DNA of 60,656 bases from a virus (taxonomy: Duplodnaviria; Caudoviricetes). The position numbers and the translations under genes are program-made. Positions 23,328-33,740 of this stretch are shown one piece after another (position 1 is the first letter of the stretch; each line of letters opens with the position of its first letter). The DNA is taken from positions 1 to 60,656 of IMG/VR virus record IMGVR_UViG_3300049002_000003; one strand, written 5' to 3'. Below the pieces are notes generated by a model. It had not been told where the DNA came from. It did not search any database and saw only the letters and a program-made list of their open reading frames with translations.

Positions 23328-24794
23328 CTAGGCGGCCATGTCCGCTTCGCTGACGCGCGAGCCGCTGTCGTCTGCCGGCTCACCGAAGTAGCCGATGAAG
23401 AACCGGCCAAGCGCCTCAGGGCAGTGGTCGTCCTTCTTCATGGGCGCCTCAGGAACCTCTTTGCCAGACTCTGCGGCCTCTTGCGCGCTCTTGGGGTAGC
23501 GGTAGTCATTCATCTCACGAATGGTGTTCAGACACTTCCGCGCTACCAGTAGGCGCGGCAACTTCTCCGGGTGCCCATCCTCCAGCCAGGCGTTCCTGGG
23601 CTTTAGTGCGGCCCGAATCAGGCGGAGCCGTGGCCGGAGCTCACCCCCGGTACCGCCCGACGCATTGATCTTCAGGTAGTTCTCCAGCGCCTTCGTGTCA
23701 CCAGGAGAGGCAGGGTCTGGGTAGAACGTCCGGACCGACTGCGGCGCCAGCTGTCGCTCCTGTAGCTCCATGGCGACTTCGTCAATGGTCAGTCCGCTCT
23801 CGTACATCTCATCGATCACATATACGTTGCCGTGGAAGTCGACTTGTATCAGCAGCCAAACAAATGGGTTGGTGAAGCCATAGTCGCACGCCGCGAACAG
23901 CGGCCATTCCGGGTTGTACCGCAGATCCCTTACGTGCATCTCCTCATCGAAGTCCTTGAACACGCGACCAGCGAACTCGGTGAACTTGGCAGCGATCTCC
24001 TGGTTGAACGTCTCGGTCGACAGGTCCAGCAATTGCGAGACGATCTCAGGGTCCACCCCTGAGTCGGCCACTATCTGCGGGGAGAGAGCGCCGGAGCGGA
24101 TGGCATCAGACACCATCTTGATGCCCTTGAGGGTCGCGCCTTTCGGATAGATGATGTTGTTCCGCCACGACGGCATACGCCATGACTCCCACTCATCGTC
24201 TACTTCGGACTGTCCACGCAGCCACAACTCATAGAACCAGTTCTTGCCCTCTGGAGTTGAGCTGAATAGGCTCCAACCCCGGTAGTCCGCCAGCATCGGC
24301 CGGATGTACTTGGTCCAGGTGACCTGCTTCTGCTTCGCGGCCTCCGCCATGATGACGCCGTTGAGCCCTTCGCCCACGAGCCGCTCAGGGTGCTTCGCGG
24401 ACTTCGCCATAACGATGAACTTGCCGCCGTACATCGACAATGCCATGTCGCCGTCGTGCGGGTTGTTGTACGTCCCAGGCCTGTCAAACGGCGCGTCTTG
24501 GGCCCTGAGAGCGTCGTACAGCACCCTGAACTCTTTCTCTGAGTCCGTGTACTCAGGACCCACGATCCAGAACTCTCGGCGCTTCCCAGTCTCGATGAGG
24601 CGCGGCTCCATCAACTTGGTAGCAGCGCTCTCCCGCAACAGGACATGGCCGCCTACTACCGACTTGCCGAGCCGGCGCCCAGCAGCCACGACCTTGTTGC
24701 GTGTCCGACTGCGATAGATGGGCCGCTGCCCGGCGTGCGGGACGTGGCCCGCCTTCCTGAACAGCAACTCTTGGTTGAGAGCGAGCCGACTCAT
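23328..24794 (-). CDS. terL: Terminase large subunit
   Basis: Walker A 'AAGRRLGKS', Walker B-like 'VIMAEAA', 'SSTPEG', nuclease 'DYGFTNP' and 'KKDDHCPEAL'. Confidence 0.95.
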   Translation of the reverse strand: MSRLALNQELLFRKAGHVPHAGQRPIYRSRTRNKVVAAGRRLGKSVVGGHVLLRESAATKLMEPRLIETGKRREFWIVGPEYTDSEKEFRVLYDALRAQDAPFDRPGTYNNPHDGDMALSMYGGKFIVMAKSAKHPERLVGEGLNGVIMAEAAKQKQVTWTKYIRPMLADYRGWSLFSSTPEGKNWFYELWLRGQSEVDDEWESWRMPSWRNNIIYPKGATLKGIKMVSDAIRSGALSPQIVADSGVDPEIVSQLLDLSTETFNQEIAAKFTEFAGRVFKDFDEEMHVRDLRYNPEWPLFAACDYGFTNPFVWLLIQVDFHGNVYVIDEMYESGLTIDEVAMELQERQLAPQSVRTFYPDPASPGDTKALENYLKINASGGTGGELRPRLRLIRAALKPRNAWLEDGHPEKLPRLLVARKCLNTIREMNDYRYPKSAQEAAESGKEVPEAPMKKDDHCPEALGRFFIGYFGEPADDSGSRVSEADMAA

Positions 24795-25435
24795 GCCGGC
24801 TCGGCTTGCTCGCCGGACTGCTCGTCATCCATCTGGAACGTGACCTCTTCGACCGTCTCATCCCACTTGTTCGCCACGATTGCCCGGATGACCTCAGGCA
24901 CCTTCCCGTACACGCGCTCGATGAGAATGTTGGCAGCGCGGAGCCGGACAGCCTCATCGGTGTACTGCGAGAAGGCGAGCTTCGCTACCACTTTGATGGC
25001 GAGCTTCCCGAACTTGGCGAACTCGCCTTCACCACGCCGCAATAGCTCGCTCTGGAACAGCGCCTGGAACTTGCGATTGAGCTCCGGCGGCCGGCCTGAG
25101 AAGTCGCCATCTCGCGTCCGGCATTGCCGCCGAGCTAGCTCCTCATCGTCCAGATCTTGCATGGTTAGCTCGCCATCCAGAAGCATCTGCCACCGGCTCC
25201 GCGAGTTGTCAATCCCAAGTGCGGCCTCTTCTGCCTCGCGCTTCTTCCGCGCTGCGATCCGGGCGCGCCTTTCCTCCAAAGCCCTTTTCCTACCGGCCTC
25301 GAATGCTGCTGCATGTTCGGGCGAGCTAGAGCCACCAGCTCGCCTATTCGGCCGCGTCTTCGTCTTCGCAGGAGGCACTATGCTAATGACTGAAGCTTCA
25401 GCAGCCGGTCTTTGGGGACGCTTGCGATCGGCCAT
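24791..25435 (-). CDS. Putative terminase small subunit
   Basis: ATGA-coupled to terL; helical 'VRLRAANILIERVYGK' motif. Confidence 0.6.
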   Translation of the reverse strand: MADRKRPQRPAAEASVISIVPPAKTKTRPNRRAGGSSSPEHAAAFEAGRKRALEERRARIAARKKREAEEAALGIDNSRSRWQMLLDGELTMQDLDDEELARRQCRTRDGDFSGRPPELNRKFQALFQSELLRRGEGEFAKFGKLAIKVVAKLAFSQYTDEAVRLRAANILIERVYGKVPEVIRAIVANKWDETVEEVTFQMDDEQSGEQAEPA

Positions 25436-25611
25436 GTCTCCATTCCAATCCGAAAGATGTCAAGTTGGAAGGAGTCTATCTGCCGATGGGCTAGATAGCA
25501 CTCAGGCCAGTAGCCGGGTCAATTGCATCAGGGTCGTCCGGCGAGGTACGCACAGCCATGCCTATGCGCTCGCTCTCGGTCGGCTCATGGTCGCTGTCCT
25601 GAATGAGACCA

Positions 25612-25636
25612 GGCCCACCACCATACTCGGTGGGCC
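25612..25636 (-). terminator. Hairpin downstream (minus strand) of the long pentamer array
   Basis: GGCCCACC / GGTGGGCC 8-bp stem with a 9-nt loop. A second stem, ACCGCAT/ATGCGGT, spans 25639-25675. Confidence 0.45.
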
Positions 25637-25675
25637 CGACCGCATTGTCTTCTCCGAATGGTCCGCTCATGCGGT

Positions 25676-26099
25676 AAGCCTAACCGCACACCGCAGCAGA
25701 CCCATGCCTTACCAGAGCCGTACCGAACCGAGCCGTAGCACCGCTTACCAACCCAAACCTCAAACTGCCGTACCGGGCCTACCCTCACCACACCTTGCCT
25801 CGCTCGGCCCAGCACCGGTCGTCCACACCACACTGTTCCACGCCGAGCAGAACCTAGCCGATCCCAGAAGAGCCATTCCACGCCAGCCCCAGGCTTAGCA
25901 TTCCGACCCGACCATTCCACACCTTTGCACACCATACCGAGCCAGACCGGTCCAAACTCCGCCTTGGCACCCCATACCATTACCAGACCTGACCATGCCC
26001 ATCCTGTCCGGGCCGGTCAACGCCAGTCCGTGCACGGGCTTAGCCACCCAGACCTTACCAGACCAATCCCGGGCACGCCATACCGCGCCTTCGCTAGCC
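25676..26099 (-). repeat. Long 5-nt-period array (GGY-NN on the minus strand), about 85 units; candidate guide-type ncRNA
   Basis: Plus strand reads NN-RCC in register, e.g. ttacc agacc tgacc atgcc catcc tgtcc gggcc. Intergenic, with a few 1-nt register shifts. Confidence 0.85.
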
Positions 26100-26288
26100 C
26101 TGCATATCCGTACGAGAAGACCCTACGGGTCACGTCTGTTTGCCGCCCGTAATGCAATCCCAGTTCGTCCCTCGCGTACGCGCGCATCACGGGCGCGACC
26201 GGGCGACGCGCGCTGGCGTAGCGCGCGTGAGGCGCGCGTACAGCCGCGCGGGTCGCGTGAGGCGCGTACGTCGGCGCTGGGTGAGGAG

Positions 26289-26397
26289 TCGCGCGCTCCC
26301 GCGAGAGCAATGGAGTTTCCTACGCGCGTAGGAAGTTTGGCTTCTCTCGCGGACGTACGCGAGACCTGCTGCGCGGCGAGGGGCGTGCGCCCGCGCG
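26289..26397. repeat. Palindromic element copy 1 (related to 45724-45830)
   Basis: TCGCGCGCTCCCGCGA-N13-TCCTACGCGCGTAGGAAG...CGTAC.CGAGACC...GCGCGGCGAG, containing the perfect palindrome TCCTACGCGCGTAGGA. Confidence 0.8.
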
Positions 26398-26496
26398 TTA
26401 GGCCAATTCTCTGCAGCAATATTTCACACATTAGCAAACACGCATTCATGCATTGTTGCCGGCGGGGGCAGGGCCGGCCGACTACGGCCGAGCTAG

Positions 26497-26976
26497 CTAT
26501 GACGCACGCGCATCCAACTGTAGCCAAACTCTCCGACTGCTAATGTGCTGTGGACCCTTGATGACCTTCTCGCGGTGCGTCGTCTCGTCAATGCGAATTA
26601 TCTTGCATTCCAGACGCGGCTTAGCACCAGCCGGCAACGGGATGACCGGCGTCAGCGAGCGCGCCTTAACATGCAGGCTTATGCCTTTTGGCTGATGCCC
26701 ACCAGACAGCGACAGCGCGCCGACTGGATTTGGGCTGGCGGCTTTCTTATGCACTCCGGAGCCCTGCCATGACTCCATCTCAACTCCGCCATAGAAGTCC
26801 TCGAAGTTGCAGTCATAGCGGTAGCTGTACCGCTCTTGGTTCCCGCTGCCACGCCCAGAGCCGAGCCCATCGAACGCACCCCCGGCGGCTGCGGCCGCCA
26901 TAGTGATGAGTATCAAAGCGACCACGACCAGCTGGGTAAACGACATGCCCTGCTGCGCCGGCGCCTGCTTTGCCAC
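26497..26976 (-). CDS. Membrane-anchored hypothetical protein
   Basis: GTG start with a GAGGAG RBS; N-terminal TM helix. Confidence 0.65.
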   Translation of the reverse strand: MAKQAPAQQGMSFTQLVVVALILITMAAAAAGGAFDGLGSGRGSGNQERYSYRYDCNFEDFYGGVEMESWQGSGVHKKAASPNPVGALSLSGGHQPKGISLHVKARSLTPVIPLPAGAKPRLECKIIRIDETTHREKVIKGPQHISSRRVWLQLDARAS

Positions 26977-27051
26977 GGTAGCTCCTCAATTCGGCGCGAC
27001 CCGGTGCCGCGCACAGTTCAACCCTACTGGTTTGCAGCCACTGGAGGGAAC

Positions 27052-27101
27052 CTCCCTCGCCGCGCCGAGACATGCCCCGCCTAGCCCAGCCTCGCCTCGC
27101 A
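27052..27101 (-). repeat. Short GGY-NN pentamer tract (10 units)
   Basis: Plus strand: ctccc tcgcc gcgcc gagac atgcc ccgcc tagcc cagcc tcgcc tcgca; intergenic. Confidence 0.65.
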
Positions 27102-27186
27102 CACGCGCTATGCGGCCTAGTTCCACCGTAGCGGCTGCCGAACCCACTTACCCCGATCCGACTACCCTAGAGGCGCCAGATCTGCC

Positions 27187-27753
27187 CTACGTCGCGTACA
27201 GGGCCGGCCACAGTTGGGCCCGAAGATCTGGGTTCGCCTTCGCCTTCCGCAGCAGAGTGATGGCGTGCCGGGTCGCGTCCCGCGCATGCGGCTGGTCGTT
27301 CGCCAGGTACAACCCCCAGTCCTTCAGCCGGTCGTTCGTCGCCGTCGCCATGGCCTCTGCGGGCTGCTGGAGATAGAACGGGCGGGCAACAGCCCCATGC
27401 GACTCCCCCGGCTCGCGCTTCCCATTCTTCAGGTATCCATAGCCCTTCCGGCAGACGTAGCCGAGCAGGAACTGAAGGTCATGAGGGATGAGAAGCGTGT
27501 CGTCCTGGAGGAACTTGCGCAACACGAACCGCTCCGCCAGTAGCGGAGTCTCGGCCCATGCCTCAAGTAGCGCCAGGATCTCGTCCACCTGCTTGTCGGG
27601 ATCGCCCACGATCTCGCCTTGCGACCAATGCATGATTGATTCGAGGATGAGCACCTTCTTCTCCACCAGAGCCTCTGGCGCGACGCACATCACACTCCAC
27701 CCTGTCGTCCCGCCAGGGTCGAGAGCCAGGAGCGGCGCCCATAACTCCGTCAC
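27187..27753 (-). CDS. RuvC-like Holliday junction resolvase
   Basis: 'LLALDPGGTTGWS', 'AERF' and 'PHARDATRHA' catalytic-type motifs. Confidence 0.85.
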   Translation of the reverse strand: MTELWAPLLALDPGGTTGWSVMCVAPEALVEKKVLILESIMHWSQGEIVGDPDKQVDEILALLEAWAETPLLAERFVLRKFLQDDTLLIPHDLQFLLGYVCRKGYGYLKNGKREPGESHGAVARPFYLQQPAEAMATATNDRLKDWGLYLANDQPHARDATRHAITLLRKAKANPDLRAQLWPALYAT

Positions 27754-30562: not shown

Positions 30563-31348
30563 CTACTCGTCATCCTCATCGTCATCGTCCAACTCCTTCA
30601 TGGGGACTTCGCCGGTGATCGGCTTGAGTGAGCCGACCTTCAGTGACGCCTCCATGACGGTCCAGTGGCTGTTCCGGATCGCCGTCCTGATCCAAGTCAC
30701 AATGGTTGACTCGGGCGTGGAATGCCGGTCCACGTACAGCGACTTGATGCCGAAGCTGAGCATGACGGCGCAGTGTTCCTCGCCGGACTTGACCTCTTGG
30801 TGCAGCACGCTGCCGTCGGGCATCTCGACCAGGTATCTGGTGGTGGTCTCCATCCTCCCGTACTTCGACAGCGTCATGACCGGGTCTTCCGCATCCACGG
30901 TGGTGTTCTGCGACAGCCAGCGCTCCACACGGTCTCTCAGCCGATCGAAGGCAGTTGGCCACTGCTCCTCGGACTGCGCGACGATCAGGATGGCCTCGCC
31001 TTCGGCTGCGTAGTACCGCGTGACCGGCGGGATTCCCAGCTGCTTGAGAGCGCCGTTCAGACCTTCGTCGCACCAGCCTTCGGAGCGCTGTCCGGCGAGC
31101 GCGACGCGCCGCACACGGTCCTTGTAGCGCTGCTGGTCGAAGTCCGCGAACAGCAGACCGCTGTCGCGCAACTCCACCAGCGCCTTCATGTACCAGTTGC
31201 CGTCCATGCCGATACAGCCGAGCCGTTCTGCGGACCTCTGCAGCCAGTCCAACTCCAACTCCTGGAGCTTCGACTTGGGCATCACGAGCGCCCCATCCGG
31301 CTCAGCATCAGCCGCCGAAGTCGTGGGCGTGAGCGTCACCTGCGCCAT
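30563..31348 (-). CDS. Hypothetical protein
   Basis: 261 aa, AAGGAGAGG RBS, acidic tail; contains a 'WCDEGLNGALKQLGI' motif. Confidence 0.7.
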   Translation of the reverse strand: MAQVTLTPTTSAADAEPDGALVMPKSKLQELELDWLQRSAERLGCIGMDGNWYMKALVELRDSGLLFADFDQQRYKDRVRRVALAGQRSEGWCDEGLNGALKQLGIPPVTRYYAAEGEAILIVAQSEEQWPTAFDRLRDRVERWLSQNTTVDAEDPVMTLSKYGRMETTTRYLVEMPDGSVLHQEVKSGEEHCAVMLSFGIKSLYVDRHSTPESTIVTWIRTAIRNSHWTVMEASLKVGSLKPITGEVPMKELDDDDEDDE

Positions 31349-31406
31349 ACCAAACCTCTCCTTCGCTCGCCGTGGCCTACTCTGCCTCGCCTCGACTCGC
31401 CTGCCC
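31342..31406 (-). repeat. Short GGY-NN pentamer tract (13 units) filling the intergenic gap
   Basis: Plus strand: gcgcc atacc aaacc tctcc ttcgc tcgcc gtggc ctact ctgcc tcgcc tcgac tcgcc tgccc (9 of 13 end in CC). Confidence 0.6.
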
Positions 31407-31840
31407 TAGGCCTGCGGGTTGTCGCGGACGGGCCGCGCGCTGTGCGTCGGGTTGCCGCGCTCCGGCTCCGCGTCCGGCTCGCTCGCGGCCAGAACGACGT
31501 CCGACAGCGGCTCGGCCTTCGCGTGCTCCGGCTCGTAGTCCGCCGCACGGTCCACGGGGTTGAATGCCGCGTCGGGCTGCCCCGGCGCGAAGTCCGGCCG
31601 CGCCAACTGGACTACGGCCGTGCCGTCGCGGAGCGCCCGGATGGTCTCGGCCTCCAGGTCCGACAGCGTGCCGCCGACCAGGCCGGCTCCGGCGGTGACG
31701 GAGACCACGATCTTGCCGTCCACGGACCGCACGGAGTCCACCGGGATCTCCTGGCGGGACGGCTGGAACTGGACGACGATCGGGCTGGAGCCGTTCTCGT
31801 ACTGGACGTTGGCGATGGCGTCGTTCAGGGTTGCGGTCAT
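31406..31840 (-). CDS. Hypothetical protein
   Basis: ATG 31840 with a GAGAGGA RBS. Confidence 0.65.
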   Translation of the reverse strand: MTATLNDAIANVQYENGSSPIVVQFQPSRQEIPVDSVRSVDGKIVVSVTAGAGLVGGTLSDLEAETIRALRDGTAVVQLARPDFAPGQPDAAFNPVDRAADYEPEHAKAEPLSDVVLAASEPDAEPERGNPTHSARPVRDNPQA

Positions 31841-31921
31841 GACTGTCCTCTCAGGACGGTTGGGGTATTCCTTGCCTCGGCCGGCCAACGGCCAACCGCT
31901 ACTTGCCAGAACAGACCCGAG

Positions 31922-32194
31922 TCAGTTGCCAGCGCAAACCGGGTCGCGGACGACCACGGTCGGCGCGCTGTCCGTCTTGTCGTGCGTCGAGACGTAGATG
32001 CCGTTGCCCTTGTAGCAAGCGATGGCGACGTTCGGGAAGTGGTCCGGCATCGGCACCACAGGCACGTCCGACTTCGGGACCTGCGCTGCCGGCGCGTCGC
32101 CGGTACCGCGACTGTCCGAGCCGCACGCCGTGAGCGAAGCGCCGAGCGCCAGGCCTGCGGCCGCGATGGCGAGTTTCTGGATGGTGTTCATCAC
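31922..32194 (-). CDS. Lipoprotein
   Basis: Signal peptide with lipobox 'LTAC'; coupled to the stop of the RAMP-like gene. Confidence 0.7.
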   Translation of the reverse strand: MMNTIQKLAIAAAGLALGASLTACGSDSRGTGDAPAAQVPKSDVPVVPMPDHFPNVAIACYKGNGIYVSTHDKTDSAPTVVVRDPVCAGN

Positions 32195-32835
32195 GCCTCA
32201 AATCTGGTCTGAGCGAAGTTGGTCACGAGGAACCGGCCATACGTCGGCCGGAAGTCTGCGATGCCGACGACTCGGCCGCCGTTCTCCAGGACCTGCTGGA
32301 AGACGGTTGGGGAGACGTACTCCGGCAGGTTGATCATGAACTGGAAGGATGCGGTCCACCCCTCGTTGAAGGCTGGCCGCGAGCGCGTGACGCCGTTCCG
32401 CTGCACCATGACGCGCCGCTGGTCCATGAAGTCCCAGTCGGTCACGCCGCCGTTCAGCGGCGCCAGGTCGGTGAGCGGCACGATGGCTGCCTTCATGAGC
32501 TGAGCCATGGACGCTCGCGGCGAGCGCGGGTCGGGCCGGAACTTGGCCGAGTTGACCATGACCTGCCGGACGTACTCACCCGGCAAGCACAGCTGGTTAT
32601 TGCTGTTCCGCCAGACGTACGACTGGACGTCGTCAGTCTTCTTGGCGGCGCTGCCCTTCGCAGCAGCGGACTTCTCCGCCACCGACTCGACCGACCATCG
32701 GTGGAACAGCATCGGGCATACCCCGGTGAGGGTGAAGTCCACGATGACCGGCTCTGTCAGAGAGATGATGTCGTTGCCGTCGTCCGACGTCGGCTCCAGC
32801 ACGTCGGTCGCTTTGCCGTTCGCTTTCGCTGCCAC
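32191..32835 (-). CDS. Solo Cas7/RAMP-like RNA-binding protein (214 aa)
   Basis: GTG 32835 with a GAAGGAG RBS. RAMP-like layout: first strand 'FTLTGVCPMLFH', 'LCLPGEYVRQVM' (cf. IPGSSxKG of Csm3/Cas7 RAMPs), thumb-like 'DQRRVMVQRNGVTRSRPAF', C-terminal G-rich loop 'GGRVVGIADFRPTYGRF'. Confidence 0.7.
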   Translation of the reverse strand: MAAKANGKATDVLEPTSDDGNDIISLTEPVIVDFTLTGVCPMLFHRWSVESVAEKSAAAKGSAAKKTDDVQSYVWRNSNNQLCLPGEYVRQVMVNSAKFRPDPRSPRASMAQLMKAAIVPLTDLAPLNGGVTDWDFMDQRRVMVQRNGVTRSRPAFNEGWTASFQFMINLPEYVSPTVFQQVLENGGRVVGIADFRPTYGRFLVTNFAQTRFEA

Positions 32836-32850
32836 TGTGGCTCCTTCTGT

Positions 32851-32945
32851 TGCCCTGGCCGGACCACACCCGTTCTGGCCCCGCAGTACCTGTCCCAGAC
32901 TTGCCCCGCCTTGCCTGTCCTTACCGGACCTAGGCAATCCAGACC
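32851..32945 (-). repeat. GGY-NN pentamer array (19 units) directly upstream of the RAMP-like gene
   Basis: 15 of 19 in-register units end in CC on the plus strand and 11 are exact NN-RCC. The array ends 3 nt before the RBS. Confidence 0.85.
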
Positions 32946-32998
32946 ATCGGCTCGCCTAGCCGCTCACACGTACCCTCTCGCGCCGAGAGCTACTGGCG

Positions 32999-33304
32999 CT
33001 ACTGTGCGTCGAGAAGACGCAGCAAAGACTCGGCTGCTTCTCTGGAAGTAGAAGTAAGACGTCCTTCGGCCCAGTCATGGACAGCCGCAAGCTTCACTTC
33101 CAGACCTGCGATCCTGTCGTGCAGGAGCATGATCTGGTCTGCGGCTGTAGAAGCGTCGGGAGCGGAGACGCCCAGCATGCCGAGCAGATGGTTGATCGAG
33201 TCGCGTTGGTTCCTGATCTGTACCATGCGGCGCGCGTCCAACTCGGTCGCCATGCGCATGACGTCCTGCTTGTCGTGGTAGTTCTTCACACCATCGAGCG
33301 CCAT
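32999..33304 (-). CDS. Hypothetical coiled-coil protein between two pentamer arrays
   Basis: Start is ATG 33304 or GTG 33289. The ORF-track extension further upstream is translated array sequence. Confidence 0.55.
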   Translation of the reverse strand: MALDGVKNYHDKQDVMRMATELDARRMVQIRNQRDSINHLLGMLGVSAPDASTAADQIMLLHDRIAGLEVKLAAVHDWAEGRLTSTSREAAESLLRLLDAQ

Positions 33305-33519
33305 GCCGTCACTCGCCTCTCCTAGCCTTCGCTTGGCTTCCCATACCATTCCATGCCGGAAGCGCTCCAATCCCCGCAGCATCGAACCGTAGCCAGCACG
33401 ACCGCGTAGAACCGGTCCACACCATACCGAGCATTGCCCAGACCTACCGAGCCGTTCTCTGCCCCGCCACGCCGATCCGTTGGCGCAACCGGCCCAACCC
33501 AGCCTCTCCTGGCCGAGCC
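33288..33519 (-). repeat. GGY-NN pentamer array (about 45 units)
   Basis: Plus strand e.g. gaacc ggtcc acacc atacc gagca ttgcc cagac ctacc gagcc, and cggcc caacc cagcc tctcc tggcc gagcc. It begins at the stop of the upstream gene. Confidence 0.85.
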
Positions 33520-33740
33520 TAGGAGTGGAAGACCTCGTTGAAGGTCACCAAGCGGATCTCCTGGCCGACGACGAATGGCGGCGCAGAGCCGTCCGCGAAC
33601 GTCAGAGTCATGCTGGCGTCGGCCAGCACTTCACCTTCAGCCTCCGCGACTTCCTCCGGCCGCACGAGCGTCGCCGTGAACGAGTTGGGCTGTACGTCCG
33701 TGACCTGAACGTGCATATCCCAACGGTGTGACTGTGGCAT
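33519..33740 (-). CDS. Small hypothetical protein (73 aa)
   Basis: ATG 33740 with a GAAGGAG RBS; first gene of the RAMP/array locus. Confidence 0.65.
   Translation of the reverse strand: MPQSHRWDMHVQVTDVQPNSFTATLVRPEEVAEAEGEVLADASMTLTFADGSAPPFVVGQEIRLVTFNEVFHS

Follow-up and report, generated by a model that had tools for sequence, protein, structure and literature searches.

The G-rich, 5-nt-periodic stretch that we call A1 (25676..26109, minus strand) is very probably a repeat array of the vrRNA type belonging to the phage's own VIPR system. This reading is supported by the anatomy of the repeats, by the identity of a protein encoded elsewhere in the genome and by the linkage of such arrays to the vipr gene at the genome level. 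The window, meaning the entire 60,656-bp stretch of DNA analysed, spans one IMG/VR virus record from end to end; the record carries direct terminal repeats and is rated 100% complete. All its credible genes lie on the minus strand, and its matches to isolated phages are confined to the terminase gene, which is ~65% identical in DNA to that of phages of Gordonia, Mycobacterium, Microbacterium and Micrococcus; the host is probably a soil actinobacterium. Among public sequencing runs, the A1 stretch was located in one soil metagenome, which may be its source, and in no RNA run. No variants of it were found in three soil metagenome runs, where the source contig alone covers it, and scans for Rfam families, tRNAs, promoters and terminators returned nothing relevant to the array.

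A1 is of a kind that is already known, VIPR being the subject of four bioRxiv preprints from 2026. VIPR (Viral Interference Programmable Repeat), first described in 2026, is a phage RNA-guided gene-silencing system in which a minimal RAMP protein, Vipr, composed of an RRM core, a glycine-rich loop and a thumb, is combined with guide RNAs encoded as GGY/NN (YNNGG) arrays of four or more tandem units on the vipr strand (10.64898/2026.04.26.720920). Between related loci of such systems GGY is conserved and NN hypervariable, and the processed transcripts co-purify with Vipr. According to the same preprint, the NN dinucleotides read double-stranded DNA without a PAM, skipping one base per unit, which is mostly the wobble base of a codon, and as a result rival phages and satellites are silenced transcriptionally; natural targets show an NN match of at least 80% with the skipped base at the wobble position, and no self-target (10.64898/2026.04.26.720920). 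Seven types are distinguished, with architectures that include 'staggered' tail-less arrays, hammerhead-interspersed arrays and single vrRNAs; a type II vrRNA consists of 9-16 YNNGG repeats with an invariable structured 3' tail, and a vap accessory gene beside vipr is typical, not universal (10.64898/2026.04.26.720920). The systems studied experimentally are of type II, from Escherichia phage SUSP1 and a Pseudomonas fulva prophage (10.64898/2026.04.26.720920, 10.64898/2026.04.26.720927). One Vipr protomer is bound per repeat, with H17, D177, R138 and W178 of the SUSP1 protein contacting the GG and R179 helping to form the pyrimidine pocket (10.64898/2026.04.26.720927). Furthermore, solo vrRNAs on satellites and vipr-null phages redirect or attack the VIPR of rivals (10.64898/2026.10.15.759431), and language-model entropies recover VIPR arrays by their 5-nt period (10.64898/2026.10.21.760802).

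Anatomy and neighbourhood of the array

A phase-tracking parse resolved A1 into ~86 GG-Y/H-N-N pentamers; between 26109 and 25676 the parse counted 81 in-register pentamers and 29 out-of-register nucleotides. GG opens 59 of the 81 units, GGH 54 and GGY 42, and 78 retain at least one G. The position weights are G.75, G.82 and not-G.93, with positions 4 and 5 near random, and A occupies position 3 in 17-21% of units. The GG is lacking in 22 of the 81 units, and the integrity of this dinucleotide is the highest among the five arrays of the genome. The units are organised in three in-phase blocks, of 25 (26109-25985), 14 (25978-25909) and 37 units (25904-25720), all on the minus strand. A 6-nt unit at 25980..25985 shifts the register by +1 between the first two blocks and a 4-nt unit at 25905..25908 by -1 between the second and third, while a short terminal part with broken register extends past block 3 up to the start codon at 25670. 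The RNA of A1 is predicted to fold no better than shuffled sequence (z = -1.4), and the lack of a stable fold is as expected for a guide that would be coated by protein.

The periodicity of A1 clearly exceeds the background. Measured in 150-nt windows, the spectral power at period 5 rises to 9.5 over 25651-26150; across the genome its median is 0.67 and its 99th percentile 3.2, and over 500 shuffles of the region it averaged 1.43 and never rose above 4.23. The signal is also strand-specific: GG at 5-nt spacing over 12 units scored 10 on the minus strand, at most 7 on the plus strand and 6-7 in 20 genome shuffles. Tandem Repeats Finder reported nothing at A1, indicating that the variable positions do not repeat, and period-3 power was 0.89, whereas the TerL gene has a median of 2.41; thus A1 is neither a microsatellite nor codon-like. 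A sequence-only reading of this DNA had proposed about 85 units with a same-strand 5-nt period, divided into in-phase blocks by 1-nt register shifts, and had regarded them as unlike both a simple microsatellite and codon structure. Our analysis agrees on all of these points, with parsed blocks close to those proposed. Concerning the extent of the array, given as 25676-26099, the 25676 end was correct but the far end reaches to about 26109. As a separate observation, one 15-mer of three identical consecutive units is common to A1 (~25942) and array A5 (~33432), which could have arisen by chance or through a small duplication from one array to the other.

On its downstream side A1 runs into the leader of an operon formed by a conserved small gene of 59 aa (25491..25670), the terminase small subunit TerS (24791..25435, phrog_10899) and the large subunit TerL (23328..24794), all on the minus strand, in agreement with the position just upstream of the terminase operon noted before. 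The ATG of the small gene abuts A1, and homologues of this gene lie upstream of TerS in many relatives. Two hairpins, at 25639-25675 and 25612-25636, had been suggested to define the 3' end of the array transcript. The hairpins do exist (-10.6 and -16.6 kcal/mol), but one of them spans the start codon at 25670 and the second encodes the most conserved motif of the 59-aa gene; since they lie inside a conserved coding gene, they do not provide a free-standing 3' end. Immediately 5' of A1 on the gene strand lies a CGCG-rich non-coding stretch (26123..26500, no strand assigned) with direct and inverted repeats: a 13-nt direct repeat occurs twice, 30 nt apart (26224, 26254), alongside several inverted repeats and a 44-nt palindrome (26284-26367). 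This stretch folds no better than shuffles (z = -1.5) and is a possible promoter/operator or packaging site.

In total, the genome carries five arrays, all on the gene (minus) strand, all intergenic and spread over 8 kb, each of which continues as far as the following gene's start codon or ribosome-binding site. A2 (27035..27119) is short and more degenerate, and lies between the genes 27187-27753 and 26497-26976. A3 (31335..31414) has 13 units and runs into the start of gene 30563-31348, A4 (from 32836 or 32839 to 32968) is located directly upstream of vipr and runs into its ribosome-binding site, and A5 (from 33286 or 33306 to 33557) fills the gap from the stop of the upstream gene (~33519) to the start of a 101-aa gene. 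The latter gene (32999-33304, minus strand) has A4 and A5 on either side and encodes a helical protein that matched no Pfam, PHROG or ESM Atlas family and had no homologue beside vipr in 80 relatives.

The Vipr protein and the linkage of arrays to its gene

The gene 32191..32835 (minus strand) encodes Vipr, a protein of 214 aa. Its GTG start codon, at 32835, is preceded by the ribosome-binding site GAAGGAG. When the ORFs flanking arrays were clustered, ORF 32191-32937 joined a family present in 30 of 70 distinct array loci. The protein is a Cas7-like RAMP and the sole RAMP or Vipr in the genome. A 30-sequence profile matched PDB entry 36pp, 'SUSP1 Vipr protein', with an E-value of 2e-39 over 186 of 211 positions, and the single sequence matched the same entry at 9.9e-7. 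The top Foldseek matches of its AlphaFold2 model (pLDDT 85.6) were Csm3/Cas7 chains (E 4.5e-7 to 1e-5, TM ~0.5). The SUSP1 residues that contact the GG and Y, H17, R138, D177, W178 and R179, align to H45, R153, D194, F195 and R196, which are invariant or nearly so in both family alignments, the replacement of W178 by F195 preserving an aromatic residue. Conserved as well is the G-loop motif G-x-x-x-G-x-x-D-F-R-P-x-x-G-R-F.

Of 1884 candidates from database searches, 1536 are relatives of Vipr at E <= 1e-3, and none of the 120 relatives among the matches listed had an informative name or contained a Pfam domain. We recognised no vap accessory gene, the neighbour genes in the window had no BLAST homologue near vipr in 80 relatives, and no neighbour gene of vipr is conserved in the clade. 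The gene that follows vipr (31899-32201, minus strand, 100 aa) has a signal-peptide-like start and a lipobox-like motif, and on these sequence features it may encode a superinfection-exclusion lipoprotein rather than a vap product.

The distribution of arrays across viral genomes allowed us to assess whether they travel with vipr or with the terminase genes. An exact IMG/VR scan for eight GG(H) spaced 5 nt apart gave at least 131 stretches, and the 80 loci examined contained arrays of 60-966 nt with 35-72% GC. An ORF matching the Vipr profile was present within 2 kb at 53 of these 80 loci versus 0 of 160 terminase-relative loci (1.13 Mb); the latter set comprised 80 IMG/VR and 80 metagenome loci with TerL identities of 44-66%, whose flanks were scanned. 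Starting from the protein, a scan of IMG/VR with the close-clade Vipr alignment recovered 354 relatives, and among the best 80 of these, which were analysed, 78 had arrays beside vipr, amounting to 27,194 nt on the vipr strand versus 334 nt on the other strand. None of the 160 TerL-relative loci had a same-strand array. Furthermore, in a search with a positive control, Vipr was absent from five out of five complete related phages with TerL 48-59% identical, and the 10-unit GGH pattern had no match in the four complete relatives scanned versus 33 in this genome, all on the minus strand.

Within the terminase lineage, arrays thus occur only where vipr occurs. The absence of Vipr from five complete phages of the same lineage indicates that VIPR is an accessory module acquired by this phage, and the co-occurrence of arrays and vipr together with the absence of arrays from TerL relatives indicates that A1 belongs with vipr and not with the terminase. 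An array orthologous to A1 was not found: a search for TerS in metagenome contigs gave 426 pattern matches and no relative, and the best TerL in metagenomes (~65% identity) had no array. A1 lies 6.1 kb downstream of vipr, matching the 6 kb distance to a RAMP-like gene pointed out in the sequence-only reading. Only 3 of the best 80 of the 354 relatives have an array more than 3 kb from vipr, and in these three vipr is the only neighbour gene that resembles any gene of the window. The term 'orphan' previously applied to A1 is not appropriate, as the genome carries its own vipr; A1 is therefore a distal array and not a solo vrRNA in the published sense.

Pooling the arrays of the clade (4353 units in 123 arrays) gave the consensus G.90, G.80, Y.87, N, N. 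The tail-less layout of A1 is common in this clade, which has 42 arrays at least 200 nt long with in-phase blocks ranging from 1 to 105 units. The commonest register break is a 6-nt unit, which accounts for 52 of 105 shifts. Such breaks fit the legend describing staggered arrays (fig. S18), in which 1-nt offsets are said to mark the ends and starts of vrRNAs (10.64898/2026.04.26.720920), and the guide lengths that they would delimit here are non-uniform. The preprint does not count the staggered type among those confirmed by RNA sequencing (10.64898/2026.04.26.720920). The proposal that phase shifts mark guide boundaries in A1 finds little agreement with the parse, blocks of 25, 14 and 37 units being mostly outside the range of 9-16-repeat guides.

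No non-repeat k-mer was shared by the sequences after the clade arrays, i.e. no common 3' tail was found, with the exception of a subclade in which short arrays are followed by a conserved CT-rich tail. In the ten loci of this subclade, compared over the first 130 nt after vipr, the vipr DNA is 91-99% identical and the adjacent array exists in three unrelated versions, each with the same CT-rich tail. Three array versions behind a near-identical vipr are a clear case of cassette-like guide turnover in this subclade. At another locus (L254, 8973-9397), both of two sub-arrays are closed by one and the same GC hairpin; a T-rich run resembling an intrinsic terminator comes after its first copy, and the sequence shown stops inside the second. 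This arrangement suggests that the two sub-arrays could be separate array transcripts.

Known systems, targets and alternative explanations

With the VIPR systems of SUSP1 and P. fulva, the phage analysed here shares GGY/NN pentamers on the vipr strand, a phage-borne Vipr with conserved GG-contact residues, arrays in the intergenic regions flanking vipr (A4 and A5) and the lack of CRISPR repeats and cas genes. It differs from them in having no invariable 3' tail or pseudoknot, in its continuous runs of 25, 14 and 37 units as opposed to RNAs of ~100 nt with 9-16 repeats, and in its five arrays over 8 kb, with A1 in the packaging-operon leader at a distance of 6.1 kb from vipr. In addition, no vap was recognised here, position 3 tolerates A, and the host is probably a soil actinobacterium. 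Because tail-less 'staggered' arrays are named in the preprint, the missing tail and the block lengths set A1 apart from type II but not from VIPR as a whole. Like the staggered arrays, as far as their legend describes them, A1 and the clade arrays are tail-less with 1-nt offsets, here as recurrent 6-nt (+1) units; unlike them, judged by the same legend, the block lengths here are non-uniform, from 1 to 105 units in the clade. The resemblance to solo or orphan vrRNAs lies in the location of an array away from any vipr gene, whereas those elements lack vipr and carry one or two tailed vrRNAs, and here a vipr lies 6 kb away and the array has ~86 units.

A more distant comparison can be made to the Cas7/Csm3 crRNA filaments of type I and type III CRISPR systems. 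These share the RAMP fold (Foldseek E ~1e-6), one protomer per fixed guide step and a thumb that periodically interrupts pairing. Here, however, the step is 5 nt and not 6, the GGY part is recognised by sequence, and there is no repeat-spacer array, cas1/cas2 or effector nuclease. Indeed, we detected no CRISPR-Cas hallmarks in the genome: there were no direct repeats of 25-40 nt, Rfam gave nothing and the only RAMP was Vipr itself.

Neither local nor seeded searches identified a target above chance for the arrays. When the 1-nt skip rule was applied to 2 Mb of related phage DNA, five matches at 20/24 were obtained versus 0-2 in eight controls, but all five represent one group of related loci and are hence non-independent. 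In the same way, the 1-nt skip gave a slight excess over skips of 0, 2 and 3 nt and over controls that were reversed, swapped or shuffled; one locus group accounts for the whole of this excess. The best target match, 20/24 (83%) in the wobble phase, is located within TerS of the L047 group and falls in the control range; we regard it as a lead, not a finding. Exact scans with an 8-unit seed in IMG/VR and a 9-unit seed in 185,579 genomes gave 44 and 21 matches, the 14-unit block, searched as two 9-unit halves, gave 3 and 0, and none of the seeded-scan matches extended beyond the seed. The seed matches fall in unrelated genes (phrog_38559, replication-initiator-like, exonuclease VIII-like), with TerS hit only in the three loci identified before. 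A peptide common to the seed matches was considered as a conserved TerS motif and discarded, since the seed fixes codon positions 1-2 and the shared peptide is therefore forced. The best match of the array to its own genome was 18/24 at 12 units under the 1-nt skip rule, i.e. below 80%.

The variable dinucleotides have a composition of their own. Their GC content is 41% in A1 and 41-46% across A1-A5, in a genome of 62% GC. In the arrays of this phage they do not follow the usage of codon positions 1-2 (r = -0.06 in A1, where 0.70 would be expected for dinucleotides drawn from coding sequence); the pooled clade does follow it, its correlation being 0.72 in sense phase as compared with -0.04 to 0.50 when read in any other phase. 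The AT-rich NN may reflect AT-richer target DNA, avoidance of G at the variable positions or drifting arrays.

Such observations are relevant to a first alternative, namely that A1 is a VIPR-type array that does not serve the phage's own targeting, being either a decaying remnant or a decoy of the solo type that misdirects the Vipr of rivals. Solo vrRNAs that redirect or attack rivals' VIPR have been published (10.64898/2026.10.15.759431), and the AT-rich NN without codon-like usage, the lack of a target in our searches, the 22 units without GG and the distance from vipr all speak for this possibility. On the other hand, vipr is intact with all GG-contact residues present, A1 has the best preserved GG of the five arrays (59/81), and its strand and 6-nt-shift architecture are those of the vipr-adjacent arrays of the clade. 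We consider a remnant or decoy rather unlikely.

It is also conceivable that A1 acts in cis on the late or packaging operon without any guide function, as a leader RNA comparable to the TRAP-binding leader, as a single-stranded DNA site or as a site associated with pac/cos. TRAP binds (G/U)AG repeats 2-3 nt apart in the trp leader as a closed 11-mer ring and acts on attenuation in cis. Common to both cases is an mRNA leader with a purine motif repeated every 5-6 nt and read by a protein multimer, one subunit per repeat; the fold of TRAP is unrelated to that of Vipr and a guide function is absent. The abutment of A1 on the first gene of the small-ORF/TerS/TerL operon, the extension of all five arrays into the next ribosome-binding site or start codon and the hairpin across the start codon at 25670 would fit a cis element. 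Yet none of the 160 TerL-relative loci has such an array, which led us to reject a pac/cos or late-leader element, four complete relatives have no array at all, and identical arrays flank vipr in unrelated phages, leaving a cis element of whatever kind very improbable. As for a protein-coding origin, either through ORF 25585-25980 (131 aa) or through a frame-shifting repeat protein rich in Gly, Trp and Val, a frame of 131 codons does lie open across A1. The period of 5 and not 3, with the period-3 power far below that of TerL (0.89 versus 2.41), register shifts that disrupt any frame, the lack of Pfam and PHROG matches and BLAST matches solely to pseudo-ORFs encoded by similar arrays make this scarcely credible, and we regard the ORF, which shows neither a family match nor a period-3 signal, as a by-product of a stop-poor repeat.

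Proposed mode of action and meaning

By analogy to the SUSP1 and P. fulva systems, A1 as an array of the phage's own VIPR system would be transcribed from the gene (minus) strand. Vipr protomers made from 32191-32835 would then bind the RNA, one per pentamer, holding the GG(Y) and exposing the NN. In a rival mobile element, the dinucleotides would read the double-stranded DNA and skip a base in every unit, which would result in codon periodicity, and the bound filament would block transcription of the target. A1 is a distal member of the five arrays, and its site is the small-ORF/TerS/TerL operon leader. The genome's Vipr would presumably load it, and the tail-less run of 25, 14 and 37 units may be cut into guides, if it is cut at all. 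The core of the sequence-only reading, a multi-guide array acting together with a RAMP-like protein, is thus backed by family membership and co-occurrence, while its details regarding hairpins and guide boundaries are not.

The position of A1 in a late-operon leader would also allow a more specific scenario, in which A1 is made along with the late transcript, and long or staggered filaments coated by Vipr provide late-timed guides against essential late genes of rival phages, or the array also serves as a brake in cis on the phage's own late operon. Taken jointly with the notion that the long tail-less arrays of the clade are not simply strings of 9-16-repeat guides, this scenario is an outside chance. 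The best single target lead for it is the TerS gene of a rival. If true, a late-timed or cis-braking array would represent an undescribed way of timing or processing VIPR guides.

The two VIPR systems examined by experiment so far are of type II, come from proteobacteria and have tailed guides of ~100 nt. The phage described here and ~350 Vipr relatives in IMG/VR have a different layout, with long tail-less arrays that fill whole intergenic gaps, and a single phage can carry up to five arrays with ~200 units in total, including one in the terminase-operon leader. On a practical matter, a stray G-rich gap with a 5-nt period, even far from a RAMP gene, becomes assignable during annotation by means of a Vipr encoded elsewhere in the genome. 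The features of A1 that are worth following are its distal placement in a late-operon leader and its long tail-less runs.
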